Positions 3,840-33,586 of a DNA stretch of 64,000 bases are shown one piece after another. A program made the position numbers and the translations under genes. Under the pieces are notes generated by a model, which worked only from the letters and a program-made list of their open reading frames with translations, was not told where the DNA came from and ran no database searches. This DNA comes from Promethearchaeota archaeon (GTDB taxonomy: Archaea; Asgardarchaeota; Lokiarchaeia; Sigyniarchaeales; SOKP01). The stretch covers positions 32,001-96,000 of the forward strand of contig JBHLPW010000002.1 in NCBI GenBank assembly GCA_048939015.1. Direction: 5' to 3'. Numbering within the stretch: the stretch's first letter is position 1; each line of letters starts with the position of its first letter.

Positions 3840-5900
3840 TTAAGCTGTAGGAGAAACCTTTTTTTGTAAACCTCTTAAAATTTCTTCATATAATTTCTCT
3901 ATAAAACCCTCAAAATCATTCTCAGTATACTTCACATTTAACATCTGCCATAATAAAACAGGTATGTCATCCTCATTATCATATACTGGAATAATTTTTA
4001 ACATTCCCTTTTTTCTCATCTGGAATGCAGCTTGCCATTCATCTTTAACAGCATTAGATTTTACTGAATTTTTCGAGCAGAAAAGTACGAATATATCCGT
4101 ATTTTTTAGAGTATCTTCCATGAATTCTACGATGTTTTGTTTACTGTCAGCTTGCCAATACGAAACCTTTTTTATTTCTGGATATACTTCTAATTCTTTC
4201 ACTATATCTGATATTCGAAAATGCTCAGCATCCAAAGTAGAATAACTGAGAAATACTCTCTGGTTTTTAATGTCCTCAAGTGGTGATACTGGTGCTATTT
4301 CTTTTGCTTTTTGATTAAAGGCGATTGATTTTGATGCTGAAAAATATTCCGCGTCAATTTCCCGATTTTTAATCATTTCAAGAATTATTTGTTCGATTTG
4401 ACTTTCATCTTTAACATCACTCTTTTCAACAATATCCATGAGTTCAAGGCGGGCAAATTTAGTTCCATAGTTCAAGATAGTCTTTTTGATCTTTTTCTTG
4501 ATATTAAACTGGAAGTCCTTACAATAATCAATTTTTTCTTCAATTTTCTCTAGTAATTCAGAAAGTTCATATTCTCTTGCTAATTCTTTTATTTCAACTA
4601 GTTTTAAAATTGCGTCATAAAATTTACTATTTTCAATTAGATTTTCAATTTTAGATAATTTCTTTTGTATCTTTTTATCCATTTTAGCTTGTTCTTTATC
4701 TCTCTTAATTTCTTCTTCCAGTGTTTTACACTGTTCTATTTTTTCTTCTGCTTCTTTCAAAATTTCTGATAATTCATATTCTTGTGCTATTTGTTTAACT
4801 TTTTCTAATTCTCGAAATGCATTTCTTAGCTTATTATCTTCAATTAAATCTTCAATTTCAGATAACTGAGTTTGAAGTTCGTCTTTAACTCTCTGTTCTT
4901 CTAATTCTTCTCTTTTTTCTATTTTAAGTGTATTAACTTCCTTTAATTTTACCTGCGCCTTTTTCATTAATTCTATCAATCCAAAATTTCTTGCAGATGC
5001 TATTATATTATTTAGATTTGCAATAGCTTCATCATATCTATTTCCTCTAATTAATTCATCAATTTCTGACATTTTTTGCTGAAGACCAGTTTTAATTTTT
5101 CGTAGTCCCTCTTCTCTTTCCTCTTTGGAAATTTCTTTAAAGATAATAACAAAATCCCTTACTCGAGCATTTATCTCATGATTAGTGATCATATCGTCAA
5201 CAATGGTTTCAAGAGTTTCACGTTTTATTCCTGTTTTTGATATAATTTCGAAAAAAGGCAGTTCCTTTGATTGAAATTGCATGGTTTTGATAAAATCAAT
5301 AGTTTTTCCTTCAACTAATTGTTTATCCTCCCAATCAGTACCAACTACTACTTCCTGTTTAATTTCGATAGGTTCAACTTCTAATACCTTCCGTTTCATA
5401 GGTTTAGCCTTTACTTCTTTTACTTTCGTCGATTTAACACGTCGAAATATTAATTCTCCTTCCTTACTTACAACAGCAACAACATTTGTTCCAATTAAAC
5501 CAATCCCAAAAATCAAACATAAATAGAATCCAGCTGTAAAGGTTATAGGATTTACAATTACTTGATTTAATGAGATTATAGAAGGATAGATCATTAAGCT
5601 AATTAAAATTAAAAGAAAACCAATTCCACCGAATAGGAGTGCCTTTTTTTTTCTTTCTGGGGTCAATAGTATAATTGAGATAATGGCAAGTGCAACACCT
5701 ACCCACCCCCCAAAAATTAAAGCAATATAACCCTCATATTCTGTCGTATAACCTTCCCATACAGGAGTTTCGGGTGGTGGTGGATATGGAGGGTGATGTT
5801 CTAAATAATATGGAAGAAATGCTGAAACCAATACAATTATAATTAAGATTCCATAAATTAATCTTATAAAATTGAATTTCTGTATTCTAATTTCTGTCAT
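3840..5900 (-). CDS. 4-TM membrane protein with PCI/winged-helix-like domains, three helical repeats and a C-terminal TIR domain
   Basis: Four N-terminal hydrophobic segments; two wHTH/PCI-like segments (IVDDMITNHEINARV, IILEMIKNREIDAEY); TIR motifs VFLSYSTLD, FVLFCSKNSVKSNAVKDEWQAA and KIIPVY at about 3870-4259. Confidence 0.85.
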   Translation of the reverse strand: MTEIRIQKFNFIRLIYGILIIIVLVSAFLPYYLEHHPPYPPPPETPVWEGYTTEYEGYIALIFGGWVGVALAIISIILLTPERKKKALLFGGIGFLLILISLMIYPSIISLNQVIVNPITFTAGFYLCLIFGIGLIGTNVVAVVSKEGELIFRRVKSTKVKEVKAKPMKRKVLEVEPIEIKQEVVVGTDWEDKQLVEGKTIDFIKTMQFQSKELPFFEIISKTGIKRETLETIVDDMITNHEINARVRDFVIIFKEISKEEREEGLRKIKTGLQQKMSEIDELIRGNRYDEAIANLNNIIASARNFGLIELMKKAQVKLKEVNTLKIEKREELEEQRVKDELQTQLSEIEDLIEDNKLRNAFRELEKVKQIAQEYELSEILKEAEEKIEQCKTLEEEIKRDKEQAKMDKKIQKKLSKIENLIENSKFYDAILKLVEIKELAREYELSELLEKIEEKIDYCKDFQFNIKKKIKKTILNYGTKFARLELMDIVEKSDVKDESQIEQIILEMIKNREIDAEYFSASKSIAFNQKAKEIAPVSPLEDIKNQRVFLSYSTLDAEHFRISDIVKELEVYPEIKKVSYWQADSKQNIVEFMEDTLKNTDIFVLFCSKNSVKSNAVKDEWQAAFQMRKKGMLKIIPVYDNEDDIPVLLWQMLNVKYTENDFEGFIEKLYEEILRGLQKKVSPTA

Positions 5901-6137
5901 TTAAATCTACTCTTCAATTATTTTATTTATTCGATTTTTAATAAAGATCTTTAATTTGTTTCTCGTTTAGTTCTATTAAGACGAGTTTAGATTTTATTTT
6001 TGGATTATACTACTTATATTAATTATATGATGACTTCATATTTATATCACTCTTGTGTATAAATTAAATTTCAATCAGAGTTAATATAAAGATACATAAA
6101 AAAAAAATAAAAGTAGTAAAAAGGCTAATATTAGAAT

Positions 6138-9100
6138 TTACTTTATTTTTTTCTTAAGTTGCCATGAAATTGATATTAAACTGAAAATCATTATTAAATA
6201 AAGCATATTAATATTATAAGTTGGTATAGCGGGAGATTCTGATTTCTTAATAGAAACCTCAGCATATCCTTCATGACCCAATGTATCAGTAGCATAAAAT
6301 CGTAGAGTGTATTCTCCAGGAGGTAATGCATTCCAATATTCTTGGATAATATCTCCAGTAAGGGTACAAGTTTCATTTATTTCTCCACCATCTAATGTAT
6401 ACCATATCTCATCTAAATTACCTTCATTTATAGTTAATTCAAAACTTGGAGCTCTATCTGTAAATGCTTGATTGTCTTCTGGAGAATTAATCGTGATCTC
6501 TGGTGAAAGTACATCTTTCCTCACAGTTACTTCTTCCCAATCAGAATTCCCTACCGAATCATTCGCATAAAATCTTATAGTAACAGTCCCATTGCCAAAA
6601 TTATCCCATTCCGTTTGGTCAATGTTTCCCATAGGTTCAGTAATAAGTAAGATTGTTACTCCTCCGTCCAAAGTATACCACATAATGTTCAAGTTTGGTT
6701 CTACAATAATTAAAGAAAATGAAGGAGTAGTGCTTCCGAAGAGATAATTTGAGATCGGTGTGGTGATTGTAATCTCTGGTGGAAGCACATCTTTTCTTAC
6801 TAACACATCTTCCCATCCAACATTACCAGCTGTATCATTCGCATAAAATCTAATAGTAACCGTTCCGTTTCCAAATTTACCCCATTCTATTTGGTCAATA
6901 TTACCCGTAGGTTCAGTAATAAGTACAATTGTTAACCCACCATCCAGGGTATACCACATAGTATCTAAATTAGGTTCAATAACTGTTATGTTAAAGTATG
7001 GTTCAGAACTTCCGAAAAGGTCATATAGAAGTGGTGAATTGATTGTAATGTTAGGATTGATAATATCAGCTATACAAGAAATTGTAAAATACCGAATTAA
7101 TGAAGATCTCATATATCCAACTGTATCATTTCCAAACACTTGAATGGTATGTAATCCATCTGAAGGCAATGGAATTGTAGTATTTCCTAAGATAGTCTTT
7201 ATTGTTTGAGAATCTAGTGAATATCCTTGCCAATCAAGAGCAATTTCACTCTCATAACTAAGTAATAGCCCTTCATTTAAATTATCTCCAATTTTATAAT
7301 TTGGATCCCAGGAATACCCTATCGCATCTACATATCTATTATGGCTATATGGCATTGACCAGCTTAACATATAGGTGGGTGCTATATTATTAATAAAGCT
7401 CAATGGTCCAATTTTAGTCCCATTAATATATAAATTCCATTGATATTGAGACAAACCCATATAACCTCCATTTGTAGCTTCAAAATCCATTCTAATATGA
7501 TACCACTTATTATTTATAACAGGAAGACCAGTATCATGCCAACCGGTATTATCTAGATATAAGAATTTATCTCCTACTCCGATTGCTACACAACAAATGT
7601 CTACAGTACCATTATGAAGTCTGATTTGAAATGAATGAGAAGAAGTGTAAGTAGTAATTTCATTTGCAGCCCAACATTCAAAAGTTCCATTACTCTGTGG
7701 TCCTGTAGTGAATTGCTGGAAAAAAATCGCCCCTCCTTCATAGCAATTGTATACCTTCTTATGACCATTAAATTCATCTATGACCTTCCAATTATCTTCA
7801 GAATCCAAAAAATTGAGAGGATCATTATTATTATGAGTATCTTCAAATCCATAGGTAGCTGGATAATAGCCACTCATCGGATCAGTATAGGTTTTGTTTT
7901 CAGGAGTGATTATATCTATAGGGAAATATTGAACGGTGAAATACCTAATCTGTGAATAATATTCTAATCCTAGTGAATCATTTCCAAATACTTGAACTGA
8001 ATGTACTCCATTCTCTGGTATCGGAATTGTTGTGTTTCCATAAATAGTTTTAGAGATGTGATCATCCAAAGAATACCCTTGCCAATCAAGAACGATTCTA
8101 TTTTTATAACTTAGCAATAAACCTTCATCCATATTAGCTCCAATTTGATAATTAGAATCCCATGAATACCCAATAGCATCAAAATACATATAATAATTCA
8201 TTTCTGTACTCGCAGTTGATATCCAAAATAGTGTTGCTTGAGGTTCATTATTTTCAAATTTAAAGGGTCCATATTTAGAGCCATTAATATGTATAAAACA
8301 GGAGTATTGATTCAATCCTTTATAATTCCCTGTTGAACATTCAAAATCAACACTTAAATGATACCAATTATTTGAAGAGGCAGGACACAATGAGTAATCC
8401 GTTCCATTAGTATATCGAAATTCATTATTCCTAATCTCAACAGCGAAAAGCGAATCAGTTACTACATCCAAATTCGCCAATCGAAAGGCTCCCGCCTGGG
8501 AAGCATCTGATATCCTCCACCAAAATTCTACTGTTCCATAAACTTGTACTGAGGAAAAGTTATTCCAAAGTTTTACAAGTCCAGCCCCAGCATTATTATT
8601 ATCATAGAGTTCTAAAACCTTTTGATGTCCATCAATTCCAGAAATGACTTGAACAGATGTATCTGAAGCTTCTAAAATTGTCCATCCTTCTGGATAAGTG
8701 CCATCCTCATCATTTTCAAATCCATGAGTTGCTAGGTAATATCCATCCATTGGTTGAGTATATGTTTGATTAACTGGAGTGACTAATTTAATCGAGGAAA
8801 CCTCAAAATGTTGTAGTCGTGATTGATATAACTCTCCTAATGAATCATTTCCAAATACCCGAATAAGATGTTCCCCATCTACTGGCATTTTTATAGTTGA
8901 ATTTCCTAGTATAGTTTTTATAGGCTGTAAATCAAGTGAAAATCCTTGCCAATCAAAGACAGTAGAGTTTGTAAAACTAAGTAATAACCCTTCGTTTAAA
9001 TTATCTCCAACATTATAGCCGGGATCCCATGAATAACCTATAGCGTCGACGTAATATGTAAGATTATTACTCGCACTAGAATAAATCTGAAAATTATGTA

Positions 9101-13250: not shown

Positions 13251-13257
13251 ACAAATT

Positions 13258-13330: not shown

Positions 13331-13403
13331 CAAAAATTTAATAAATCAAATCTAAGATAACAATTTGACCAGACGTAATCAAAGAAAAAGAAAAAAGAGA
13401 ATT

Positions 13404-20234: not shown

Positions 20235-20240
20235 ATAGTT

Positions 20241-20410: not shown

Positions 20411-21991
20411 TTACCAAATTAGATTAGCAATTATATCTTTAGTTGTTTCTGCTTGTTTTTTATTCAGTATTTTTCGAATACGCAGATCATTGATAGCATC
20501 ATCTAGGCGTGTGTCTAGGTTTTTCATTTCCATTAAATTATTTTTATCTCCTTGAGTCTCTACAAGTTCGATCATTGAATTTTCTTTATTCATTAAATCT
20601 CTTAATTTCTGTCTAAAACTAGCTTTCACTTTAGTTCTTACTACTTTCCCTCCATCAATTAAAATGGGTAATACGGGAGCTCTTTCAGTCGTTCGATTTG
20701 TATTGGGGTCCGTGAAGAAAAAGATATAGATTGGGATACCTACTATGACATTTTGTGACTTTAATTCAAGAGTATAGTTATTGAAGAAAGCCTGTACATT
20801 TGTCATTTCACTATCTTTAATCGATTCAATGTTATCCAAACAAGCTTGTTTTTCTGTTTTAATTTGTGCTAATACATCCTCAGCAGATGTTAAATCTTTA
20901 CTTAAGTCACTATGTTTTGCCTCAATTTGTTTTTCGACTTCAGATTTCTTACGTTCTAACTCACGTAGTTTTTGCTGTTTAGTTTTCTCTAGATCTGAGA
21001 TTTCACGTTGTACATTTCTCCGTAATTGTGCTATCTCATTTTTATACCTTGCTATAGAGTCTCCTAATTCACGATATTTAACATCGATATCTTTTAATCC
21101 CTCTTCTACTAAAAAGAGATCTCGTTGGTTAATAGCGTTTTTCAAACCATCCACGCTTTGTTTGAGTGTACTTAGATGATTATTAAGTTCTCCGGTTTTG
21201 TCATTGATTTTGTATTTTCCAAGCTTTACGAGTTCTTCTGGAGATTTTTCTATTTCTCGTTCTTTTTCTGCTTGTATTTCTTTATTCAATATTGCAAGTT
21301 GTTTCTCTTCTTCTCCTGTATCTACTTTTGTATCTCTAATTTTATCAGCTTCTTTGCTTCCTTTTTCGATCCATCTCTCGCATAATTTTATTATAATATC
21401 GCTATAAGAATCTAACGTTTTAACATCTGTTTGTGAAACGAATTCATTAATTTCTGGTACTATTTTAATCTGATTTACACTTTTTGAAATAGATCCTCCT
21501 TCCAACATAAAATAGGGAGTAGAGTGAGCCCCTAGATTATATTGATTAAGAAAAAAGTTTTGAAAATATCCTACTTCATTTGTATTAAACAAAGCTTCTT
21601 GAATAACTATACCACGCTTGAAGTTTTTGGCTCTCTTTAGATAGGAATTATTATAAGATTGTAAAGAATTCAAAAAAGACACAGGATCTGCGCCCTTCAC
21701 AACATTTTCAGGTCGAGGGGGCATCTGAGCGAATTGTCCAACACTTAATTTTTCTTGTTTATTTAAAAGATAACTACAGACACAAGCTCTTGTATCGCTT
21801 AAGGGAATTAAGCGAACAGGCCAAAATGCTGTAGTTATTTTTGAGATTTTCCCTAGCTTTTTTAATGATTTGCCATAAATACCTACACATTCAATCAAAC
21901 CCATGGCAAGTTCGTTAAGTAGGCTTGCTTGACTTCGAGCGGGAGTTATTTCACCCATATTAATTAAAAAAGGTGTTACTTTATCAACCAT
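20411..21991 (-). CDS. Hypothetical protein with a long central coiled coil
   Basis: E/K/Q/L heptad-rich region at about aa 200-400, flanked by globular segments; no TM or signal peptide; no recognised family. Confidence 0.75.
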   Translation of the reverse strand: MVDKVTPFLINMGEITPARSQASLLNELAMGLIECVGIYGKSLKKLGKISKITTAFWPVRLIPLSDTRACVCSYLLNKQEKLSVGQFAQMPPRPENVVKGADPVSFLNSLQSYNNSYLKRAKNFKRGIVIQEALFNTNEVGYFQNFFLNQYNLGAHSTPYFMLEGGSISKSVNQIKIVPEINEFVSQTDVKTLDSYSDIIIKLCERWIEKGSKEADKIRDTKVDTGEEEKQLAILNKEIQAEKEREIEKSPEELVKLGKYKINDKTGELNNHLSTLKQSVDGLKNAINQRDLFLVEEGLKDIDVKYRELGDSIARYKNEIAQLRRNVQREISDLEKTKQQKLRELERKKSEVEKQIEAKHSDLSKDLTSAEDVLAQIKTEKQACLDNIESIKDSEMTNVQAFFNNYTLELKSQNVIVGIPIYIFFFTDPNTNRTTERAPVLPILIDGGKVVRTKVKASFRQKLRDLMNKENSMIELVETQGDKNNLMEMKNLDTRLDDAINDLRIRKILNKKQAETTKDIIANLIW

Positions 21992-22097: not shown

Positions 22098-25000
22098 TTA
22101 TCTCAATATTTCCTCATAGAGTTTCTGGATAAATTCATCAAAGTTATCTTTTGTAAATTTAACATTCAATAAAGGCATTAATAAGAATGGAATTAAGTCC
22201 TCTTGTTCATATACGGGAACTATTTTCATCAAACCTTTTTTCCTCATTTGAAAAGCTGCCTGCCACTCATCTTCCACGGCTTTAGATTTTATAGAATTTT
22301 CTGAACAAAAGAATACAAATACTTTACTTAGTCTTAAAGTTCTTTCCATATAAGTTACTATACTCTCACCGCTATCTGCTTCCCAAAAGAATACTTTATC
22401 TATTTTTGGAAATGCTTCTAGTCGTTTGGCAATTTCATCAATATTGAAATGCTCCGAATCTAGAGTGGAGTAGCTTAAAAATACATTTAAGCCTCGAGTA
22501 AAGTATGTTCTTATAGCATTTATATATAGTGGATAGTGAGCGAAATCTTCTGTAGTTACATTTCCTTCATAAAGGTCTCTTTTGAATTGTCTTATTCTTT
22601 CGAAATTTTCTACAATAACATTTTTATCGGGAAAGGTTTCTGAAAAAACCTGCTCCCAATTGTTCTTATCAGTAATTATCGAATTTAATTGAATGAAATC
22701 AAGAGACTCCATTTCATCGGTAGTTGAGGGAAGCTTCTTAGGTGTTAATAATTTAGTTTTACTTTCAATTGTAGTCCTTATATATTCAGGGATTCCTTCT
22801 TGCCACCAAAGAGATTTATAGACACCTTTAAGTTTTGCTTTAGCAAAACTACGGATATTCGTTTCAAAAATTTCAACATCATTTTTGGCAGTCTCAATTT
22901 GTTTTTTGAGCGCTGCTCGTCTTTTCATTCTGGGTCTTATAACTAGGAAAGTGGAAATGGCACCTACAACACCAACAGAAATAACAATAATTGCGATTAT
23001 CACTCCGGGATCTATCCCCGCCGGTAATTCCCCTGAAATATACAAAATAGTTTCATCTGTATTATCGACTTCATTATCATCTCGAAAGCCTCCCGATTTT
23101 GAGCTATATGTTTCATTAATTTCATTATTAGGATCCAATATAATTTCCACTAACACGTTTCCACCTTGGTATAGTTCAGCTCCCTGTATGAGATCATTAT
23201 ATACTTCATCCACATCCAAGTCTATGGGGTTATCAGTGTTGTTAAATAAAATTACATTCAAATGTTCGATCCATATTATAATTATAACATTTTTGGCATC
23301 CCATATTCCATTATTTGTGATTGTGATATTTACTACAAAGGGTTTACCTATATCTGCTTCTATCGGATCAAACTTTAAGACTGCTAGATTAGGCATAGGA
23401 TACCAATAACCTAGCAATGGTTTTGTACCTAAGCCTGTTTCAATACCGTCTAAAAAGGTGTCTCCATCCGTATCATTATTATGAGGATCTGTCCCATTAG
23501 TAAATTCATGATAATTTATGAGGAAATCAGTATCAACATCAGTGATATTATCAGCATCGTTCAATGGATTTAAAATATTAAATACTTCCCATCCGTCAGG
23601 CATTCTATCTGAATCTGTATCAGAATTAAGAGGATTTGTAGAGTTTTTCCACTCCCAAAAATCAAATAACTCATCAGAATCAGAGTCAGGGTTTGTTACA
23701 TTTGTACGATATCCGTCTAACCCTAAAAGATATTCCTCAAGATTAATAAATTTATCTCCATCGGTATCTACGTCAAATCGATAAAATAATGGAAACTTAT
23801 CTTGGTTATAAGCCGTTCCAAAAATTGTCTGAGGATTATCTCCAATTGCATTATAATCTAAATCTAAACCACTATAATCATCCCAAAAATTCCCCACTGA
23901 TCCATCATCCCATATGTTTTTCTTCCCATTATCTTGAGCTTGTAAATTATTCCCTATAAAATTGTTATAGTAGATGCTATTATTCTCACAATATTCATTC
24001 TGGATAAATAAACCAAGTTCACTATTCCTTATTGTATTTCTAAGAAATGAGCTATTAGAACAGCTACTTAATATTATCCCATATTGACTATTTCCATCTA
24101 GATTATTATCTGTAAAGTTATTTAGCGAACACAACTGAGCTAATATTCCGTTAACATTATTAGATATTTGATTATTTATAAATCGGGAATAAGTACTGTA
24201 AACAATTTGGAATCCAGCTCCAAAAAATCCACTCTCCATTAATATTTTGGTACTCTCTGTTAACGTATTTCCTTCATATGTATTATTAAAGCCGAAAACA
24301 TCTTCTATACCAATTAAATTTTGTGAAGCAGAACAATTCATAATTTTACAGTTATTACTAAAGCCAAGATTAATGCCATAAGCGGTATTCATTGATGCAT
24401 TAATATTGTAGAGTGAAATATTATCGCAATATAGGATATTAAGAGCTAAAGTACACTTAGTAAGATTCAAATTTGAAATTATTGAATCAGTACACCCAGA
24501 TAAAATTATTTGCCCGGCATTCGCAAAATTAATCGGTTTCAGATTATTTATATGATAATAATAATAAATAGGCTTCCCATTTACTAAATTTGATGTATCA
24601 ATAAAGAGGATAGGTTCAAAAAACGTTGGATGAATATTTATCCCACAATTAGTCATTAAATTTCTTGATAGGTTATTGTTATCACATGATCCTGGTGATG
24701 CTGAAAGGATGTATACTCCTCCGAGAAAGTTATCATATAAATAGTTATTAATTATGTTGTTTTCATAACTATCTTCGATTTCTATTCCCATTCCATTCTG
24801 ACTAATATTATTATTAGATATAGTTATATTGAAGCAATCGACTAAGCTTAAAGCTACTCCAAGTCCGAAACTAATTGCAGGATCGATGAACTTATTATAA
24901 TTTTTAGTAATATTATTATTTTCGATTGAAGAGTTACTGTTTTGAATTGATATAATACCCAAATATGTGTTTTGTGTGAAAGTATTATCCCTTATTGTAT

Positions 25001-25793
25001 CGTTCATGCAATAAAACAAGGATAAAGCAGTCGTAGTATAAGATATTTCTAGGTCAAAAATTTGGGTTCCACTGCAGTTAATAAGGATTAATTGTCCTGG
25101 TTGAGGAAAATTACCTGGTACCAAATTTTTCTCATTAAATTTATAATAAAGAACCTTTCCATTAATTAAATTGGTTTCATCAATTGAGTGGGAGATTAAA
25201 TCCTCAACTAATGGAAGTCCACCATTAAATGGAAAATTTAATCCACAATTTGTGAAATTATTTTCAGTTAGAGTGATATATCTGCAATCTTGGATTGTTA
25301 TACCAGCGTGACTGTTATTATCAAAAATATTTCTAAAAATCGTATTATTATTAGACGATTGAAGTCCAACTCCTTTCCCTGCTTCATGATAATAATGGTT
25401 AATATTATTATTAAATGAATTATTGAATATAAAATTAAAGTTACTTCCCAATAATGTTATTCCAGCACCACCATTTCTGCAAACGAAATTTTGTGTAATA
25501 TTATTATACTCACACACATCTAAGACTATTCCTGTATTTTCATTGTATGACAAATTATTACGATGTATTAAAGTGAAGAAACTACTTAATGAATAAATTC
25601 CTGCATCATTGTACATCATGTTATTATTTTTAATTGTTGCATTGTTTACTTCGATTAGTTCGATTCCAAAATCATTAAAGTTTGCTGTACTCTTTTCAAT
25701 AGTGATATTTGTACAATATGATAAGGAAAGCCCATTTTTGGTACAATTATTGGTAATTATATTCGAAATAATATAATTTCTACCACCAAGCAC
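22098..25793 (-). CDS. C-terminal part of TIR receptor 1: NosD/CASH beta-helix, Ca-binding DxDxD repeats, CARDB-like Ig, TM, Swt1-like HEPN, TIR
   Basis: N/I/G-rich beta-helix repeats; GNFWDDY cap; DTDGD/DSDSD repeats; PNLAV..ITNNG..DPNNEINE (CARDB-like); TM at about 22938-23003; ETNIRSF..WW..IP..LDF.QL..II..NW..F...F (Swt1-like HEPN); VFLSYS..VEDEWQAA (TIR). Confidence 0.8.
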   Translation of the reverse strand: MLGGRNYIISNIITNNCTKNGLSLSYCTNITIEKSTANFNDFGIELIEVNNATIKNNNMMYNDAGIYSLSSFFTLIHRNNLSYNENTGIVLDVCEYNNITQNFVCRNGGAGITLLGSNFNFIFNNSFNNNINHYYHEAGKGVGLQSSNNNTIFRNIFDNNSHAGITIQDCRYITLTENNFTNCGLNFPFNGGLPLVEDLISHSIDETNLINGKVLYYKFNEKNLVPGNFPQPGQLILINCSGTQIFDLEISYTTTALSLFYCMNDTIRDNTFTQNTYLGIISIQNSNSSIENNNITKNYNKFIDPAISFGLGVALSLVDCFNITISNNNISQNGMGIEIEDSYENNIINNYLYDNFLGGVYILSASPGSCDNNNLSRNLMTNCGINIHPTFFEPILFIDTSNLVNGKPIYYYYHINNLKPINFANAGQIILSGCTDSIISNLNLTKCTLALNILYCDNISLYNINASMNTAYGINLGFSNNCKIMNCSASQNLIGIEDVFGFNNTYEGNTLTESTKILMESGFFGAGFQIVYSTYSRFINNQISNNVNGILAQLCSLNNFTDNNLDGNSQYGIILSSCSNSSFLRNTIRNSELGLFIQNEYCENNSIYYNNFIGNNLQAQDNGKKNIWDDGSVGNFWDDYSGLDLDYNAIGDNPQTIFGTAYNQDKFPLFYRFDVDTDGDKFINLEEYLLGLDGYRTNVTNPDSDSDELFDFWEWKNSTNPLNSDTDSDRMPDGWEVFNILNPLNDADNITDVDTDFLINYHEFTNGTDPHNNDTDGDTFLDGIETGLGTKPLLGYWYPMPNLAVLKFDPIEADIGKPFVVNITITNNGIWDAKNVIIIIWIEHLNVILFNNTDNPIDLDVDEVYNDLIQGAELYQGGNVLVEIILDPNNEINETYSSKSGGFRDDNEVDNTDETILYISGELPAGIDPGVIIAIIVISVGVVGAISTFLVIRPRMKRRAALKKQIETAKNDVEIFETNIRSFAKAKLKGVYKSLWWQEGIPEYIRTTIESKTKLLTPKKLPSTTDEMESLDFIQLNSIITDKNNWEQVFSETFPDKNVIVENFERIRQFKRDLYEGNVTTEDFAHYPLYINAIRTYFTRGLNVFLSYSTLDSEHFNIDEIAKRLEAFPKIDKVFFWEADSGESIVTYMERTLRLSKVFVFFCSENSIKSKAVEDEWQAAFQMRKKGLMKIVPVYEQEDLIPFLLMPLLNVKFTKDNFDEFIQKLYEEILR

Positions 25794-25850
25794 GGAGAGA
25801 CCAGTTGAAGTATGGGACAGATTAAAGTTGGTAATTACTGAATTATTACA

Positions 25851-26825
25851 CTAAATTAAAATAATCTGACCTGGAGATCCATAACTTACAAAATCAGGTG
25901 TAGCTAAACTCGTTTTATTAAAGTAAAAATAAACCGCTCTGTTGTTAACTTGATTACTTTCATCAATTTTGTTTGAGGACATTTCTGTGATTGAGCCATC
26001 AAGACCAATACCACATCTTTTCATTTCATTACCATTGATTGTATTATTAATTGTATATCTAATCAGTACTCCATATTGATCATTACGATAAGCTAGATTA
26101 TTGGAGATCGTATTATTTTGACCTCCTTCTACAGAAATCCCACTTCCTCCATTATCATGAACATTATTTAGTAAAATTTTATTAAAATCACAATTAGATA
26201 CAATCCTTATTCCATCATTATTGTTATCACTAGCTTCATTTCCTATAATTGTATTATTTATACATAAACTTTCGAGAAATACTCCCGTAAAAATATTATC
26301 ATTTACAGTATTTGCCGATAAAGTGTTATTTTCACTGTTGCTTAAATAGATCCCATAAGCATCATTCATCGAACAATCATTATTGATTATTGTACCATTA
26401 CATGTAGAAACTAATTTTATTCCTGCTTCTTTAGAATATCTGTCTCCATCTCCAGAATTAAATAATGTACAGTTTTCAATGATAAAAGGCACAATCGAAT
26501 TATTAATCAGAATACAACTCTCTGTTTCCTGTCCATCAATTACAACATTTTTAATAACAAATGGATCACTCCAAGTTCCTGATCCATTACACCATTCATT
26601 AGTTGCAGCGGTAATCGACCAATTTAAAGAGGGATTACTCTCATCAATGTGTATTTTATTTGAAAGAACCCAGTATCGAGCGAGTTTTAATTTGGAATCA
26701 TACTTTTCGGTTATAATTTTATTTGTACTAAATGATTTCATCCAGAGATCGCTACATAAAAAGGATGAGATTAAAAGGGTACTTAATAATAAGGATGAAA
26801 TTAAATCTCTACATTTTATTTTCAC
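25851..26825 (-). CDS. N-terminal part of TIR receptor 1: signal/TM and parallel beta-helix repeats
   Basis: GTG start with GGAG SD; hydrophobic N-terminus; WCNGSGTWSDPFVIKNVVIDGQ cap motif shared with the 2187-aa paralog. Confidence 0.8.
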   Translation of the reverse strand: MKIKCRDLISSLLLSTLLISSFLCSDLWMKSFSTNKIITEKYDSKLKLARYWVLSNKIHIDESNPSLNWSITAATNEWCNGSGTWSDPFVIKNVVIDGQETESCILINNSIVPFIIENCTLFNSGDGDRYSKEAGIKLVSTCNGTIINNDCSMNDAYGIYLSNSENNTLSANTVNDNIFTGVFLESLCINNTIIGNEASDNNNDGIRIVSNCDFNKILLNNVHDNGGSGISVEGGQNNTISNNLAYRNDQYGVLIRYTINNTINGNEMKRCGIGLDGSITEMSSNKIDESNQVNNRAVYFYFNKTSLATPDFVSYGSPGQIILI

Positions 26826-26850
26826 AGAAAATCAAACTCCTTAAAATTAT

Positions 26851-26915
26851 TTGGATTAAATAATAATTTACTTTTATGTATAATAATATTTTTACTCAAT
26901 GTTTTAAACTTTATT
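26851..26915 (-). promoter_or_regulatory. Conserved promoter/leader (BRE-TATA-like AATAAAGTTTAAAA plus AATATTATTATACATA)
   Basis: Ungapped match to 33611-33675 with identical blocks ttggatt, tatgtataataatattt and ttttaaactttatt. Confidence 0.65.
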
Positions 26916-27022
26916 CTGAGATCGGAGATTTAGAAAGTCTACAAATTAATGTTCTACTCTTATCAGAATGTAATGGGAGTTATAAAAGAAAACAGAAGAT
27001 GATTTTATTTCATGTAATAAAT

Positions 27023-30000
27023 TCAACGTAAAATCTCTTCATAGAGCCTTTGGATAAATCCATCTAAATCATCTTCAGTATATCTTACATTTAAAAATGG
27101 CATTAAAAGAATGGGAACATCTTCTTCATTTTCATATACAGGAATAATTTTAACAGCTCCCTTCTTATTTAATTGATAAGCTGCTTGCCATTCTCCTTCA
27201 ACAGATTTCGAATCTTTTGAGTGTTTAGTACAAAATAAGACGAAAGTGTTGGAAATACTTAAAGTCTTTTCCATAAATTCAACAATATTTTGACCACTAT
27301 CTTTAATATAATAATAGACTTTGTCAATTTCCGGATATTTCTCAAGGCCTTCTACGATTTTATTGATGTGGAAATGATCCAAATCCAATGAGGAATAACT
27401 TATAAAAATGTTGAATTTCCTTGGTTTTACAACAGTGGGAACAACTTTTGGTCCTTCTTCAACTTTTGATGCAGTTTTAGAGGCTTGTTCCATTTCTTTT
27501 TCTATTGTAGGAGTTGGTTTCTTTTCTTCCTTTAACTTCTCTTTCACTGCAGGTTTAGCAACAGGTTCTCTTTTAATTTCTCTGAGAATTCCTGACTCAA
27601 TATCCTTACATTGTTCAATTTTTTCATTCGCATTGTTAAAAATATCAAAAAACTCATACGTTTCTGCTGTATCTTGAATTTTTCCTAAATTTTTATATGC
27701 TAATTTAATATTTCTTTCTTTTATGAGATAATCAACAAAATCTAATTTTCCTTCTAGTTTTGTTCTCATCTTTTCTTTCTTTTTTTCACTTATCTCTTTT
27801 TTCTTCAATCCTGATACTGTCATTCTCTTCTTTATCAATATCGCAGCACCAGTCACTCCCACAGCAACTATCGCAATAACCAATACAATTATAAAAATTT
27901 CAGTGGGAAAACCAGAAGGACTAGGGATATTATTTCCTGTATTACCCACACTATTATGAATAATGATATCAGTTCCATTATCCGATAAATTATTCCCATT
28001 AATATTATTATAATTAGATTGATCGAGATATATGCCTACACCATTATTCGAAATTACATTATCAGTGATTTTATTATTATGACTGTTTATCAGATAAATA
28101 CCATTCTCAACATTCAAATTTATTGTATCTGAATTATTGAATATATTTATATGGTTACTATTTATCAATTTAATACCATTTAAATCATTAGAATTAATAG
28201 TGCTACTTGTAATATTTACATATTGGCAGGAATCTAAGAGAATTCCATTTCCATTGTTAAAAGAACAATTAAGATATATTAATACTCCATATGATAGATT
28301 AATTAATTTAACTCCTGCGTCGTTTTGATCATTACCAGAACTATAAAAGGAGCAATTATTTATTGTAAAGGAAATATTAGAATTACTAATTGTTATGCAA
28401 CTACCTGTACTTTGACCATCAATTTCTAATGATTCAATAATGAATGGATCAGTCTTGGTTCCAGAGCCAGAACACCATCCCTGTTTAACTGCTTCCATCC
28501 ATGTATAATCTCCACTACCACTATCGTCAATTATAAGCGGATTTAATGGCCAATAGTTATAATACTTTTCAATCGAAACTGATTGATATCCTATATTTCC
28601 AGCTGTGTCATTAGCATAAAAAATGATAGTTATTGTCTCACGTCCTTTTTTATTCCATTCTTCTTCATCTATGATCCCTGTACTAGTAGTCGTTTTATTT
28701 GTTATACCATCATCAATCGTATACCATATATAATCGGGGTTTAATTCTGTAATTGTTATGTTGAATGAAGGTGAAATTGTATCAAATCTATCTCCTGGAT
28801 GTGGCGAATTAATACTAATCATTGGAACATGAGTATCTTTTAATATATTCACTTCTGCAAATCCCATATTAGCAAATGTGTCATTTGCATAAAAAGTAAT
28901 ATTTACTGAACCATCTGGAAAAATATCCCATATAGTTTGATTTATAGTGCCACTCCAGATCGTAATATTCATATTAGCTGAAGAATATGATTTGTTGCTT
29001 ACAACGTACCAAGCATTGTGAAAATTACTATCAATAATTGATATATTATAATTAGGGGCTTTATAGCTAAAAGCTTGGTTATAAATTGGATTATGGATTG
29101 TAATTAGAGGTCCTAAGGTATCTTTTCTAACATTAATTTCGTGCGCTGTTTCCACTCCCCGCGAGTCATTTACATAAAAACGGATCAAAACAGTTCCATT
29201 TGCCATACTATCCCAAGCTGAAAAGTTAATAGTACCATTAGTTGTAAAGGTGTAGATAGACGTATCGTTGCCTAAAGTATACCACATTGTGTGACTGATG
29301 CCTTCCTCAATAATAATAGTATAATTTGGAGGAGTCTGTTGAAATATTTCATTCTCAGTAGGAGAAATTACGGAAAAAACAATAGGATCCCACCAAATTG
29401 GAAGTTTATCTTGACTTGGGGCTGTGCCTCCAATATTTAAATAAGGTACGTCTCCAATTCCATCATCATCCACATCCTTGCCCGAATAATCAGACCAATA
29501 ATTCCCTATTGTACTCGTATTCCATTTATTCTTGTAGCCATCATCATATGCGTTTAAAGCATTAGTATAAAAATAATTTTGAGATATTAAATTATATGAA
29601 GCATCACTTTGTAGATATAGTCCACGCTGTGTATTATTTATTAATACATTATTAGTCAAGTTGTTAGAGTTCCCATATTCGAGTTCGATTCCCCTAAAAT
29701 TTTCAATAAGTACATTACTTTTAATAGTATTGTTATTAATCAAAGTTCCCTGAAAAAATATACCCTGATTCGTATTATTCTTTATAATATTCTCAAAAAT
29801 ACAATTAAAACGAATGTCATTTCCCGAACAGTAAATTCCCTGATAGTTATTACTTATTTTATTATTTGAAATGTTATTATTATAGCAATTATACAACAGT
29901 ATGATTCCATAATTATTACTATTACTAATTGTATTATTTGAAATATTATTATTATTACAGCTCTCCAAAAAACCATTCAATTCAATGCAACTTCCTTTAT

Positions 30001-33000
30001 GAAATTGGACATAATTTAGCGAGACTACAGAATTATTGGATCTATGTATAGAAATTCCATCATAATTGTATTTAATTGTATTATTATAAATAAAACTTAA
30101 ATCACAATCTCCTAAATATAAACCAGTATTGGTATTATTATATATCATCTGTTCATAGATGTAGCTATACTGACAGTAATAAAATTCGACTCCACTAGGA
30201 TTATTACTCACTGTATTATTAGAAAAGGTAGTATTGATGCAAAACCTAATAGTAATTGAACCAAAAGGATTAAATACAATAGTGTTCTTCTGAATCGAAG
30301 TATGATTAGAATTCTCAATAAAAACTCCATAATATTGGTTGTTTGTAATCATATTTTCAATTAGACTAATATTAAGACCACTATCAATCGAAATACCTAG
30401 ATAATTATTGTCACTTATGGTACTATTTTCTAAAACACCATAAGTGACGTTATTAAAAATAATTCCAGAACCAGAATCGCTGGCATTCAAAAATTTACAA
30501 TCTTGAATGAGAAATTGAACTATAGAATTACTTATTTTAATACAATTTGAAATATTATTACCATTTATGATTAAATTCTTCAAGAGATAAGGATCTGTTA
30601 ATGTACCAGAACCAGAACACCATAATAAATCTGAACTTGCTTTAGACCATGTAAAATTCCCACTTCCTGTTTCATCAATAATAATAGGTGAAATAGTATA
30701 ATTGCAAACATTCCATGTAAAATTATTATTTAATCCATTATTATCTTCAAAACACTTTATACTATTTTCATTTATGATATTTCCATAGATTTCAGTATTA
30801 TTACTCGATTCCAGATAAATCCCATATTCGAAATTATTATTTATAAAAGTAGTTTTTATAGTATTATTTTCACAATTTTCTAACAATATTCCAATTCCAT
30901 TGTTAAACGAACAATTACTATTAATAATCGCTACGTTGCTAACATTCACCAATTTAATTCCAGCGGATCCAGCAATAGAACTGCTATTATAAATTTTGCA
31001 ATTATTAAAAATGATATATTTATTTGAATTTTTAATTTCAATACAACTGTTTAAATCTTGGCCATTAAAAATTAAACCATTAAAAATATATGGATCATTA
31101 GAAGTACCAGAGCCTTCTATAAGAGTTCTCCACCATGGTTGATTTCTTGCCCAAGTCCAATTATGCGCTCCAACACCAGATGCCACTCCATCGATTTCAA
31201 TAGGTTCACGATAAATTGAATGGATATCATTAAACCAAATTTTACCCATAAAATTCGGCTTATATCTGAAGTCATTACGAATGGCATAGTACATATGAGG
31301 TGTGTATATATATACGTATGGATAAAGATCCTCCACAATATATTTTTGCATATTATTGTATAACGACTTTCTTATAGAAAAATCAGTTTCATTTAGAGCT
31401 TGTTCCATTAAACCCTCGAGAACTGTATCGTTAACTTGACCGCGATTATATATTGAAGAATTTGAATAAAGATATTCTAGTAATACACTTGGATCATTGT
31501 AAGTTATACCTTCATAATAATAACCAAACAATTCAAGCGTTCCTACGTTATAGTACAATCTCATATAAAAATCAAACCATGAGAGAGGGTCATCGATAAC
31601 TTCAATACCAATTAAATTCAACGAATAGCTCCACGAGTTATAAATATTGGCAAATATTGGAGAACTATCTAAATAAGAATAATCTAAACTTGCAAAAATC
31701 GTAGAAGTCCAAAGACCTTCATCAGTTCCAGGATAATCGGTATCCCATCCAACACCAAAACCCATACTTTGCATAGTTTCTCTAGCTTTTGTAATATTGC
31801 AAGTAGCTATCTGATTAGAATAATTCGAATATAGCATTCCATAAGGTATTGGAGATCTTAATCTATTCGCATGCCCTTCGGCAATTTCATTAATTATATA
31901 AGAATAATTTGTTGCGTAAGAAATAGCTTTTCTCCATGTTTTATCTAGAAGTGTGTTGTTCATTCCTAAATAAATGAAATCTGAAGAGTTCTCTGGACCA
32001 ATAAGATTTATATTAGAAATATTTTTAAATGAATTTAACATTGAAGTGTCTAATGGATCCCAACTAGAAATTATACCTACCCTGTCTAAAAAATCTATAA
32101 CTCCTAATGACATGAATTTTTGTCTGTCTGCCATTGATTGAATCCTTATAATATTTACATATTTAATATCAGGAGCTTCTACCCAATAATCTTTAAAAGC
32201 TATAAGTCTTACTCTATCATCTTGAATATATTCAAGATACTCAAAAGGACCAGTCCCAATCAAATCATCTGTATTAAAATCAAGATATCTATAAAAGGGA
32301 GTTGAAGATGGAGATAATATTACTGATCCCTCAAAGCACAATAATCCTTCAAAAGCAGCAAAGGGTTTATTTAATACAAAGCGAATCATATAATCGTCAA
32401 TTACAGCAGTTCTATTAATTATAGGGGTGTTGTCGTTCCAAAAGTATACAGAAGTAAATTGGTTAAGTGTTGTATTTGAGGGTAAAGTTCCACTTGTATT
32501 CATAAAATAGTGTAACCTATCAATACTCCACTTTACTGTACTAGCATTAAACGGAGTTCCATCATGAAACTTTATATTTTGTCTCAGTTCAACAGTATAA
32601 TTTAATTTATCTGCAGACCATGTTCCCATTGATAAAGCTAATTTTGGAATTATTCTATTTTGTCGAGAACTTAAATTATATGTAAAAAGTGTCTCAAAGA
32701 TTTGAGAGGTTACTTTTAAGATATAATTATCTGATCGATAATGAGGATCAAAGTTATTCACAAGAAAATACTCAGGTAAATGAAATGTTCCATAATTTAA
32801 AACTTCTGGATCATTATTTACATCAATTCCATCATCCCAAATAGGATAATTATCTATGCTTGCAGCTACACCCTGGATATTTTCATATGACCTGTCTCCT
32901 ATCCCATCATCATCTAAATCTCTGTAATCATAATCAGACCAATAATTACCGATTGATCCATTATCCCAAAAATTAGTTCCATCATCATAAGCTAAGGGAG

Positions 33001-33586
33001 GATTTCCAATAATAAAATTACTAAACATTAGGTTATTATAACTGGAAGCATCTAAAAAAATATTATATCTACCATTATTTTCGAATATATTTCCTGTAAG
33101 ATTAATATCATGGGAATTATCTAAGCTAATTCCGTAACCATTATTGATTGAGATGTTATTTTCTTCTAAAGCGCCATTTCCTGCGTTTTGAATTTTAATT
33201 CCTGCCCCAAAAGCCGTATACATCGAATTGTATAAGATACAGTTTTTTATTTTGAAATATACGTTAGAATTTCGTATATCAATACAACTACTTGAATTTT
33301 GTCCATCAATGGTAACATTCTCAATAGTATAAGGATCAGTAATGGTTCCTGAACCACTACACCATGGCTGAGAAGAAGCTGTTGTTGCCCATTCAGAATC
33401 TCCATCTATTGAAATTGGAGTTCCTGTAAGATCCCAATATGCTGCAAATTTAATTTTCCCATTTTCATTTGATTTTAATCTATTTTCTACGATTAATTCA
33501 GTATAAAATATATTATTTACAAAAATTGAAGAGAAGAAAAAAATCAACAATATTGAGAGAATTATCATTTTACTTTTTTTTTTCAT
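27023..33586 (-). CDS. Single-pass TIR receptor 2: beta-helix, family-5 ABC solute-binding domain, beta-helix, 3 Ig-like, beta-helix, TM, helical bundle, TIR
   Basis: IFETLF..PKLA..WSADKLNYTVELRQNIKFHDGTPFNASTVKWS and IGTGPF (OppA/DppA-like, about 31220-32800); IIFYANDTAGNIG (Ig-like); TM at about 27835-27900; IFISYSS..VEGEWQAA..KIIPVY (TIR). Confidence 0.88.
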   Translation of the reverse strand: MKKKSKMIILSILLIFFFSSIFVNNIFYTELIVENRLKSNENGKIKFAAYWDLTGTPISIDGDSEWATTASSQPWCSGSGTITDPYTIENVTIDGQNSSSCIDIRNSNVYFKIKNCILYNSMYTAFGAGIKIQNAGNGALEENNISINNGYGISLDNSHDINLTGNIFENNGRYNIFLDASSYNNLMFSNFIIGNPPLAYDDGTNFWDNGSIGNYWSDYDYRDLDDDGIGDRSYENIQGVAASIDNYPIWDDGIDVNNDPEVLNYGTFHLPEYFLVNNFDPHYRSDNYILKVTSQIFETLFTYNLSSRQNRIIPKLALSMGTWSADKLNYTVELRQNIKFHDGTPFNASTVKWSIDRLHYFMNTSGTLPSNTTLNQFTSVYFWNDNTPIINRTAVIDDYMIRFVLNKPFAAFEGLLCFEGSVILSPSSTPFYRYLDFNTDDLIGTGPFEYLEYIQDDRVRLIAFKDYWVEAPDIKYVNIIRIQSMADRQKFMSLGVIDFLDRVGIISSWDPLDTSMLNSFKNISNINLIGPENSSDFIYLGMNNTLLDKTWRKAISYATNYSYIINEIAEGHANRLRSPIPYGMLYSNYSNQIATCNITKARETMQSMGFGVGWDTDYPGTDEGLWTSTIFASLDYSYLDSSPIFANIYNSWSYSLNLIGIEVIDDPLSWFDFYMRLYYNVGTLELFGYYYEGITYNDPSVLLEYLYSNSSIYNRGQVNDTVLEGLMEQALNETDFSIRKSLYNNMQKYIVEDLYPYVYIYTPHMYYAIRNDFRYKPNFMGKIWFNDIHSIYREPIEIDGVASGVGAHNWTWARNQPWWRTLIEGSGTSNDPYIFNGLIFNGQDLNSCIEIKNSNKYIIFNNCKIYNSSSIAGSAGIKLVNVSNVAIINSNCSFNNGIGILLENCENNTIKTTFINNNFEYGIYLESSNNTEIYGNIINENSIKCFEDNNGLNNNFTWNVCNYTISPIIIDETGSGNFTWSKASSDLLWCSGSGTLTDPYLLKNLIINGNNISNCIKISNSIVQFLIQDCKFLNASDSGSGIIFNNVTYGVLENSTISDNNYLGISIDSGLNISLIENMITNNQYYGVFIENSNHTSIQKNTIVFNPFGSITIRFCINTTFSNNTVSNNPSGVEFYYCQYSYIYEQMIYNNTNTGLYLGDCDLSFIYNNTIKYNYDGISIHRSNNSVVSLNYVQFHKGSCIELNGFLESCNNNNISNNTISNSNNYGIILLYNCYNNNISNNKISNNYQGIYCSGNDIRFNCIFENIIKNNTNQGIFFQGTLINNNTIKSNVLIENFRGIELEYGNSNNLTNNVLINNTQRGLYLQSDASYNLISQNYFYTNALNAYDDGYKNKWNTSTIGNYWSDYSGKDVDDDGIGDVPYLNIGGTAPSQDKLPIWWDPIVFSVISPTENEIFQQTPPNYTIIIEEGISHTMWYTLGNDTSIYTFTTNGTINFSAWDSMANGTVLIRFYVNDSRGVETAHEINVRKDTLGPLITIHNPIYNQAFSYKAPNYNISIIDSNFHNAWYVVSNKSYSSANMNITIWSGTINQTIWDIFPDGSVNITFYANDTFANMGFAEVNILKDTHVPMISINSPHPGDRFDTISPSFNITITELNPDYIWYTIDDGITNKTTTSTGIIDEEEWNKKGRETITIIFYANDTAGNIGYQSVSIEKYYNYWPLNPLIIDDSGSGDYTWMEAVKQGWCSGSGTKTDPFIIESLEIDGQSTGSCITISNSNISFTINNCSFYSSGNDQNDAGVKLINLSYGVLIYLNCSFNNGNGILLDSCQYVNITSSTINSNDLNGIKLINSNHINIFNNSDTINLNVENGIYLINSHNNKITDNVISNNGVGIYLDQSNYNNINGNNLSDNGTDIIIHNSVGNTGNNIPSPSGFPTEIFIIVLVIAIVAVGVTGAAILIKKRMTVSGLKKKEISEKKKEKMRTKLEGKLDFVDYLIKERNIKLAYKNLGKIQDTAETYEFFDIFNNANEKIEQCKDIESGILREIKREPVAKPAVKEKLKEEKKPTPTIEKEMEQASKTASKVEEGPKVVPTVVKPRKFNIFISYSSLDLDHFHINKIVEGLEKYPEIDKVYYYIKDSGQNIVEFMEKTLSISNTFVLFCTKHSKDSKSVEGEWQAAYQLNKKGAVKIIPVYENEEDVPILLMPFLNVRYTEDDLDGFIQRLYEEILR

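Follow-up and report, generated by a model that had tools for sequence, protein, structure and literature searches.

Can a prokaryote couple the outside of its cell to a TIR domain within it, in the layout of the Toll-like and interleukin-1 receptors (TLR and IL-1R) of animals, and if it can, what would read the resulting signal? This question is raised by a stretch of 64,000 nucleotides from the metagenome-assembled genome of an Asgard archaeon (contig JBHLPW010000002.1, positions 32,001-96,000; our label G000:C21:32001-96000), which we call the window, and in which three genes encode membrane proteins that end in TIR domains. These genes, here numbered 1 to 3 (Table 1), were found in an open-frame listing on the minus strand, at the coordinates that an initial annotation of the window had given them. 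Our analysis indicates that they belong to a real and well-defined family of TIR receptors, a variant of TIR signalling that is experimentally tractable. Beside gene 1 lies a RelA/SpoT-TPR-SLOG gene that had no part in the finding of the initial annotation, and whose product, judging from its domains, is the likely reader of a TIR-made signal.

One TIR subtype behind different inputs

The claim that all three proteins end in closely related TIR domains holds. Pfam TIR_2 (PF13676) matches genes 1, 2 and 3 at 55.1, 59.1 and 47.2 bits, respectively, against a curated cut-off of 28 bits, and it also matches 26/26 aligned homologs of the cytoplasmic part of gene 2. Pairwise protein identity among the three domains is 57-64%, and the five shared motifs, F(L/I)SYS(T/S)LD, (F/Y)ME.TL, V..EWQAA, KI.PVY and LYEEILR, recur in all three translations. 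At the level of DNA, the three TIR-coding ends are at most 69% alike; we therefore regard the genes as old paralogs, and reject recent gene conversion among them.

We modelled the cytoplasmic part of gene 2 (P0002:950-1231) with AlphaFold2 from 26 homologs; the model has a predicted local distance difference test (pLDDT) score of 89 and places a helical domain ahead of an alpha/beta domain of five strands. The top Foldseek match of this model is the NAD-cleaving (NADase) TIR of AbTir (7uxu; TMt 0.77, root-mean-square deviation 2.8), and SARM1, MyD88, MAL, Hydra TRR-2 and SPARTA TIRs come next. In VIA structure alignments against representatives, 17 TIR entries reached Z scores of 12.8-14.7, with non-TIR folds at or below 12.7; within these scores, enzyme TIRs were tied with adaptor and receptor TIRs. 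The C-terminal domains of the three genes are thus predicted to fold as TIR, as the initial annotation had supposed. Because a profile search of PDB sequences returned a sole match, the CRISPR-associated NAD-cleaving TIR Cat1 (E 0.004), ties to named TIR classes are drawn here from the comparison of folds.

The glutamate expected of NADase TIRs is also in place: the Glu of the DEW motif (Table 1) is invariant and is aligned, by alignment only, with the catalytic Glu of plant AtTIR ('CLDEL') and with that of the Cat1 motif 'WDEL'. According to a published survey, conservation of this Glu is frequent in TIR groups with NADase activity, yet it is no proof of activity (PMC7075850). A homodimer prediction of the cytoplasmic part, made with two copies of alignment A1, scored 0.00, which does not bear on self-association either way.

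On which side of the membrane would these domains lie? Topology was read with our own hydropathy script and with charge and sequon statistics, not with a trained predictor. Genes 2 and 3 have one transmembrane (TM) helix ahead of the TIR, and gene 1 has four and no ectodomain. The 15 residues after the TM helix hold 6-7 Lys/Arg, against 0 in those before it, a bias that is likewise present in about 60 homologs. The predicted outer parts of the proteins carry 32 and 71 Asn-X-Ser/Thr sequons and the inner parts 1 and 0, a bias stronger than composition predicts, with Asn making up 14-16% of residues outside and 4-5% inside, and with 19-27 Cys outside against 1-2 inside. The charge bias, the asymmetry of the sequons and the charge pattern of gene 1, which puts both of its ends inside, make the cytoplasm the most likely place of the TIR in each of the three proteins. 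Genes 2 and 3 would hence share a type-I single-pass layout of ectodomain, TM helix and C-terminal cytoplasmic TIR, with the large domains outside and the TIR inside, as first proposed.

The input sides had been described as completely different from one another, and in Pfam searches (E<=0.01) much of that description stood: gene 1 offers its four-TM unit, gene 2 Beta_helix/NosD repeats, and gene 3 blocks of beta-helix together with a complete SBP_bac_5 solute-binding domain (E 1e-47). The CARDB and Ig-like domains that had also been named were not detected in genes 2 and 3 at that threshold, and no leucine-rich repeat (LRR) or Ig ectodomain model was found in genes 1-3; LRR occurs only in soluble relatives. 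The juxtamembrane modules, too, had been thought to differ. In genes 1 and 2 both assignments lie below threshold: PCI reaches 18.4 bits in gene 1 (cut-off 22) and is above the cut-off in paralogs, and HEPN_Swt1 reaches 19.4-22.8 bits in the gene 2 module (cut-off 27.5) yet is matched in 23/26 homologs. Genes 1 and 3 share a 64-residue helical unit in their linkers (E 1.5e-10), so that the modules do not all stand apart. The helical module of gene 2 also matches the PADLOC candidate PDC-M34B (E 3e-8); as for the Rx4-6H motif of HEPN domains, there is no RxxxxH in the consensus of the FKRxLxEG region of the gene 2 family. Fold searches with the two-domain model of gene 2 were filled by TIR matches, so that its HEPN-like part was barely covered.

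Gene 2 had been taken as a single gene spanning 22098-26825, and here the description needs amending, since one in-frame TAG splits it into two open frames. Both parts are nevertheless in the same frame, and when read through, with an X at the stop, they give a protein of 1575 residues that is colinear over its whole length with intact orthologs (about 1600 residues; 54% identity). Could the TAG be recoded as pyrrolysine? We rejected this possibility: a paralog on contig C94 with a beta-helix-TM-PCI-TIR layout (L002:3339-8105) is broken by an in-frame TAA instead (L002:5049-5051, within a beta-helix repeat), and intact orthologs of gene 2 carry ordinary and variable residues, L, S, G or K, at the TAG position. 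For both reasons, we read the stop in gene 2 as decay, polymorphism or assembly error.

How large is this family, and how far does it reach? The genome holds 11 TIR_2 matches, seven of them of the same subtype (three in the window, two on contig C6, and one each on C94 and C90), and a more distant relative with three TM helices on C125 makes a divergent eighth copy. The other genomic copies bring further inputs, namely Peripla_BP_6/ANF_receptor, fn3 and additional SBP_bac_5 domains. When the TIR alone was used as a database query, 77 proteins came back, 58-87% identical to it, and the source names given for them are all Asgard (Lokiarchaeota, Promethearchaeota, Hod-, Hermod- and Odinarchaeota). 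Among these homologs the ectodomain-TM-TIR architecture recurs, with beta-helix, SBP5 and FG-GAP/PQQ propeller inputs or with the four-TM unit, alongside soluble LRR-PCI-TIR proteins. One chassis, stalk-TM-HEPN-like-TIR, is seen with either a beta-helix or an FG-GAP propeller, and this exchange, as read from the predicted domains, is direct evidence for the swapping of inputs. The early suggestion of swappable ectodomains on a common TIR is therefore borne out by paralogs and homologs alike, from SBP_bac_5 and ANF_receptor to beta-helix and propeller inputs.

The subtype is lineage-restricted, patchy and variable in copy number. It occurs in 46/151 sampled genomes of the class (E<=1e-25) and in 19/49 of the same genus, at 1-8 copies each, and in 28/251 genomes of a phylum-wide sample (E<=1e-20). 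These 28 comprise the source genome itself, 23/54 other genomes of its family, two of a second family in the same order, and one each from a further family of the class and from outside the class. In all, only five sampled genomes outside the family of the source genome were found with a match. Within gene 2 and its orthologs, the TIR is 84-87% identical, compared with 54% overall. The soluble carriers of the receptor TIR subtype, P0072 and P0074 (LRR, PCI and TIR, no TM helix), are possible cytosolic members of the receptor network. On contig C6, a soluble LRR and PCI protein of 717 residues, with neither TM helix nor TIR, is encoded between two TIR receptor genes (L001:10287-12440, minus strand).

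A RelA/SpoT-TPR-SLOG protein as candidate reader

The gene for this 856-residue protein shares the strand of gene 1 and follows it downstream after 563 bp. Its SLOG domain is matched by LSDAT_prok at 29 bits (cut-off 25.4), the only LSDAT_prok match in the genome, and a model of its C-terminal 377 residues (pLDDT 84.7) has as its best match the ADP-ribose-binding MHR1/2 SLOG of TRPM2 (E 2e-7). The RelA_SpoT domain at the other end keeps the motifs RxKxxxSxxxK, DxxGxR and EIQ, and the N-terminal domain is also matched by the PADLOC candidate PDC-S33 (E 2e-8; 9e-18 for a homolog). A protein with this predicted combination of ligand sensor and effector enzyme is likely to be what reads the TIR signal.

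Is the pairing peculiar to this window? RelA-SLOG homologs occur in 32/151 genomes of the class, and in at least 16 of these 32 a TIR_2 gene stands within 2 kb on the same contig, most of the others lying at contig ends. The TIR partners differ by genome: some are 4TM-TIR proteins, one is a 1689-residue single-pass receptor TIR in convergent orientation, and others are one to three tandem soluble TPR-TIR genes placed about 50 bp upstream of a 669-residue homolog of the RelA-SLOG family (36-39% identical). Since the TPR-TIR partners fall outside the receptor TIR subtype, the link between TIR and RelA-SLOG reaches across TIR clades, and synteny alone does not account for it. Independent metagenome contigs repeat the theme, among them one with a propeller receptor-TIR divergent from a RelA-SLOG homolog (47% identical) and one with a compact row of receptor-TIR, Laminin_G, a 659-residue TIR protein and RelA-SLOG.

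In the tandem arrangement at L010:2757-12258 (contig C44 of genome G065), three soluble TPR-TIR genes (796-799 residues) are followed after 51 bp by the 669-residue RelA_SpoT-TPR-S protein. This copy has no SLOG match in Pfam, and the same layout is seen in genomes G098, G100 and G123; it is the soluble counterpart of the TIR island in the window. One genome has a DUF4062-STAND-TPR protein beside the RelA-SLOG homolog instead of a TIR. At L015:3929-19288 (contig C38 of genome G041), a DUF4062-AAA_16-TPR protein of 1330 residues is encoded directly upstream of two genes of the RelA-SLOG family; two N-terminal-TIR proteins are encoded nearby, and the one that was scanned (590 residues) has Pfam TIR_2 and a C-terminal LRR.

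Bacterial-type relatives with a RelA_SpoT-SLOG-RyR architecture have TIR_2 or DUF4062 neighbours in two of the three sampled (L018 and L019), which suggests a wider, undescribed TIR-linked RelA/SpoT system. A small NUDIX gene precedes the gene of this type on L019 and on the P0131 contig (metagenome), and RyR-TrkA_N proteins flank it on L018 and on the P0131 contig.

Proposed signalling mechanism and competing accounts

How could these parts work together? We favour a Thoeris-like account, in which the membrane TIR makes an NAD-derived signal and the SLOG-gated RelA/SpoT effector reads it, and we would put its probability at roughly 0.55. The receptors would be integral membrane sensors, in which a variable outer or membrane-embedded input (beta-helix, family-5 solute-binding, type-I periplasmic-binding, beta-propeller or the bare four-TM unit) is followed by one or four TM helices, an oligomerising helical linker and the cytoplasmic TIR. 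A ligand, a virion or another cell, on engaging the outer domain, would draw the TIR domains together, and the helical, PCI-like or HEPN-like linkers could help to cluster them. The assembled TIRs would cleave NAD+ and release an ADP-ribose-derived messenger, to be bound by the SLOG of TRPM2 type, the TPR-S module or both in the 856-residue protein; this would switch on its RelA/SpoT-type pyrophosphotransferase, the output of which, perhaps an alarmone, perhaps a toxic nucleotide or tRNA modification, would bring about growth arrest or death. One SLOG reader might suffice for gene 1, in cis, and for the remaining six to seven paralogs, in trans, and in genomes without a RelA-SLOG reader the TIR may act alone by depleting NAD+. 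Both the NADase activity of these TIRs and their activation by clustering are inferred. A true outside-in TIR pathway in a prokaryote, running the whole way from modular ectodomains through a TIR-made ADP-ribose-derived messenger to a SLOG/TPR-gated RelA/SpoT alarmone or toxic output, is a reading that we advance more tentatively, as less likely than not.

Several observations weigh against the Thoeris-like account. In the TIR itself, Ala occupies the position of the WxxxE Trp (four residues before the Glu, and Trp in AbTir and plant TIRs), and a Trp instead follows the Glu. Gene 1 scores 21.1 bits against the ThsB_TIR profile, whose cut-off is 21.2; the PADLOC ThsB model matches the receptor TIR at E 6.5e-4, and 18/26 homologs match the ThsB profile weakly. 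In the putative effector, Cys takes the place of the Arg in the EIQIRT motif of synthetases. Part of the adjacency between TIR and RelA-SLOG is shared ancestry, whole neighbourhoods being syntenic in close relatives, and genes 2 and 3 stand 19-24 kb from the RelA/SpoT-SLOG gene within the window. The other paralogs in the genome sit among housekeeping genes, and two family members, gene 2 and the paralog on C94, contain in-frame stops. No defence-island context was found, the island and the other paralogs being flanked by metabolic or housekeeping genes. Finally, 30/46 genomes with the receptor TIR subtype have no RelA-SLOG match; the reader is therefore no obligate partner, and receptors must be able to manage without it.

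Because the receptors must act without RelA-SLOG in those 30 genomes, plain depletion of NAD+ and non-enzymatic scaffolding both have to be kept in play. Under the former, the TIR would be an autonomous suicide or growth-arrest effector, with receptor clustering leading to the loss of NAD+ through neither messenger nor reader, and RelA-SLOG would be a separate system. The conserved candidate catalytic Glu, the place of NADase TIRs as closest structural matches and the solitary position of most paralogs all sit comfortably with this, as do the genomes that lack a reader. We nonetheless consider it unlikely, given that TIR and RelA-SLOG adjoin one another again and again in combination with varied TIR architectures and subtypes, in many cases co-oriented and with 50-160 bp between them, and that the SLOG is of the ADP-ribose-binding TRPM2 type. 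Could the TIR instead be a scaffold with no enzymatic role, as in TLR and MyD88, by which the receptors recruit soluble proteins of the same subtype, either LRR-PCI-TIR or short TIR-only proteins? Candidates for such recruits exist, for example in P0072 and P0074 and in many short open frames of 190-330 residues with the TIR subtype (some of which may be fragments at contig ends), and PCI-like and helical oligomerisation modules are present. The TIR is also 57-87% identical across proteins that are otherwise unrelated, and by Z score it resembles MyD88, MAL and Hydra TRR-2 as closely as it does enzyme TIRs. The invariance of the Glu and its surrounding motif speaks against a scaffold, however, and no death-domain or kinase partners were seen nearby, which leads us to rank this explanation lower still.

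There is also the view that these proteins are mainly adhesins or components of the cell envelope, with a TIR tail that is housekeeping, regulatory or decaying, and that the cluster reflects duplication of surface genes and not signalling. Giant anchored surface proteins do surround the TIR genes, and the in-frame stops and the patchy distribution could be read in the same way. Yet in each protein it is the TIR that is best conserved, as the comparison of gene 2 with its orthologs shows, and solute-binding and ANF-receptor-type domains are ligand sensors, not adhesins. Moreover, the giant neighbours lack any cytoplasmic domain, so that the TIR tail is a specific addition. All in all, we find this view highly improbable.

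Returning to the Thoeris-like account, what would such a system be for? Its role is most likely one of conflict or defence, or of contact sensing; the family is patchy, variable in copy number, shuffled in its inputs and partly decaying. As the flanks are metabolic, it is this evolutionary pattern, and not genomic context, that suggests a role in defence.

The locus and its relation to known systems

The source genome (G000) measures 4.86 Mb in 125 contigs, with a completeness of 94.9% and a contamination of 6.5%, and the window has a G+C content of about 30%. Table 1 lists its features of interest.

Table 1. Features of the TIR island and its neighbours, in window coordinates unless given as residues.
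Feature	Position	Strand	Content or evidence
Gene 1 (P0001, 686 residues)	3840..5900	-	four N-terminal TM helices, three helical repeat units, PCI-like winged helix, C-terminal TIR
Gene 1 TM helices	residues 11-29, 61-79, 87-105, 119-137	-	hydropathy
Gene 1 TIR	residues 549-669 = 3894-4256	-	TIR_2; candidate catalytic Glu E621, codon 4038-4040
Gene 2 distal open frame (P0002, 1231 residues)	22098..25793	-	beta-helix/NosD repeats, acidic DxDxD-type repeats, TM helix, Swt1-HEPN-like helical module, TIR
Gene 2 TM helix	P0002 residues 931-949 = 22947-23003	-	hydropathy
Gene 2 TIR	22119-22484	-	TIR_2; candidate catalytic Glu E1176, codon 22266-22268
Gene 2 interrupting stop	25848..25850	-	in-frame TAG
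Gene 2 proximal open frame (P0003, 324 residues)	25851..26825	-	hydrophobic signal-like N-terminus and beta-helix; frame identical to distal part
Gene 3 (P0004, 2187 residues)	27023..33586	-	N-terminal signal/anchor (residues 8-26), beta-helix blocks, SBP_bac_5 (residues 312-712), helical linker, TIR
Gene 3 TM helix	residues 1899-1917 = 27836-27892	-	hydropathy
Gene 3 TIR	27047-27409	-	TIR_2; candidate catalytic Glu E2132, codon 27191-27193
RelA/SpoT-TPR-SLOG gene, candidate reader/effector (856 residues)	706..3276	-	RelA_SpoT (residues 49-169), TPR, LSDAT_prok SLOG (residues 508-661), C-terminal alpha/beta domain
Small Cys-rich open reading frame (61 residues, 10 Cys)	3611..3796	+	between gene 1 and RelA/SpoT-SLOG gene; no Pfam match
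Two giant surface proteins (2370 and 2276 residues)	6138-13250 and 13404-20234	-	between TIR genes; N-terminal signal, Big_13/PKD/CBM-like parts, C-terminal TM anchor, KKKIK tail
Predicted cytosolic protein (526 residues)	20411..21991	-	no Pfam match

The association of the TIR genes with variable adhesins, noted early on, is visible here in the two giant anchored surface proteins that adjoin them. Both end in a KKKIK tail after the TM anchor, without a cytoplasmic domain, and their C-terminal Ig-like-TM-KKKIK ends are nearly identical while their bodies differ. A relative (L008) has a 549-residue open reading frame, also without a Pfam match, upstream of a giant surface-protein gene; it is likened to the 526-residue protein by size and place alone. 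The small Cys-rich frame has counterparts of 56-58 residues at a similar place in three relatives, and we do not count it into the TIR system. A NAD kinase gene at 38818-39921 (plus strand) lies about 5 kb from the TIR island among short-chain dehydrogenase genes, probably by coincidence.

What would be new in all this? In the library that we searched for literature on TIR with Asgard, Lokiarchaeota, transmembrane, SLOG and RelA, neither these receptors nor a Thoeris effector of RelA/SpoT type turned up, though such a paper may still exist. In the characterised prokaryotic TIR systems known to us (Thoeris, SPARTA, TIR-STING and Cat1), the sensed event lies inside the cell. Should the full outside-in pathway be real, it would be the first case outside eukaryotes of signalling by a transmembrane TIR receptor, and a TLR-like way of working, probably reached by convergence, in the archaeal lineage nearest to them. 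An extracellular domain coupled to TIR in a membrane receptor would add a new input logic to TIR signalling, and the receptor-TM-TIR design of animal innate immunity would be shown able to arise in prokaryotes. The pairing with a SLOG-gated RelA/SpoT protein, for its part, proposes a new class of effector that answers to TIR messengers. It would also give RelA/SpoT chemistry a purpose in archaea, in which alarmone signalling is, to our knowledge, poorly established.

The closest functional parallel is the anti-phage system Thoeris, in which a ThsB TIR sensor is paired with an effector that bears a ligand-reading domain. In type I Thoeris, with its SIR2-SLOG effector, the SLOG domain of ThsA senses the TIR-made messenger 3' cyclic ADP-ribose (3'cADPR). 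Type III combines several TIRs with a SLOG effector, and for type VIII it is proposed that the TPR of ThsI senses cADPR (preprint 10.64898/2025.12.03.692087). Here, likewise, a TIR gene adjoins a gene that fuses a nucleotide-ligand sensor (SLOG, and a TPR-S-like TPR) to an effector enzyme, and this linkage of a TIR gene to an effector gene with a ligand-sensing domain, 563 bp from gene 1 in the window, was found in at least 16/32 genomes. Again as in Thoeris, one reader could be shared by several TIR genes, the TIRs keep the candidate catalytic Glu, and distribution is patchy with varying copy number. The differences are nonetheless considerable. ThsB is soluble, whereas the TIR described here is an integral membrane protein with large, predicted extracellular domains of sensor type or a four-TM unit; its putative effector is a RelA/SpoT-type nucleotidyltransferase, a class unnamed in the text of a 2025 survey of 29 putative Thoeris types; and the host is an Asgard archaeon, the flanks form no defence island and ThsB-specific hidden Markov models (HMMs) are marginal. 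Because the TIR is a membrane receptor, the effector is of RelA/SpoT type and the ThsB models are marginal, we do not file the system under a known Thoeris type.

Other parallels concern the single parts. With SARM1, AbTir, SPARTA TIR-APAZ and Cat1, the TIR shares its best matches (Cat1 in sequence, AbTir 7uxu in Foldseek, then SPARTA) and a Glu aligned with their active-site Glu; unlike the assembly-activated NADase TIRs, it has Ala for the WxxxE Trp, and a membrane receptor would take the place of the ARM, Ago or CARF sensor in activating it. The parallel with toxic small alarmone synthetases (toxSAS, such as CapRel and FaRel) and with the PADLOC candidate system PDC-S33 lies at the N-terminus of the 856-residue protein, in a domain that matches RelA_SpoT and PDC-S33. 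In contrast to toxSAS, this domain is fused to TPR and a TRPM2-type SLOG and not to an antitoxin-like pseudo-ZFD, and it has the Cys for the EIQIRT Arg.

And the animal receptors with which we began? The description of these proteins as Toll/IL-1R-like survives for their layout: genes 2 and 3 combine a large ectodomain, a single TM helix and a predicted cytoplasmic C-terminal TIR, the family is expanded with varied ectodomains, and the TIR fold matches the TIRs of Hydra TRR-2, TLR, IL-1R and MyD88 at Z 13-15. It does not extend to the domains themselves, since by its profile scores the TIR belongs with prokaryotic TIR_2 (59-63 bits), the metazoan-type PF01582 reaching 22-25 bits, and the ectodomains are beta-helix, solute-binding or propeller, with neither LRR nor Ig found in them by HMM. 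Between TM helix and TIR, moreover, lies a helical, winged-helix or HEPN-like linker of 110-590 residues, and no MyD88-like adaptor was seen here. Restricted as it is to essentially one Lokiarchaeial family, the subtype does not indicate common descent with TLRs, and, being so narrow and patchy, it gives no grounds for deriving TLRs from Asgard genes. For the debate on eukaryogenesis, this TIR receptor family is hence a caution. The likeness to TLRs, judged from these sequences, would be one of layout only, and with the subtype almost wholly confined to one family of one Asgard class, and patchy even there, convergence is the economical reading.

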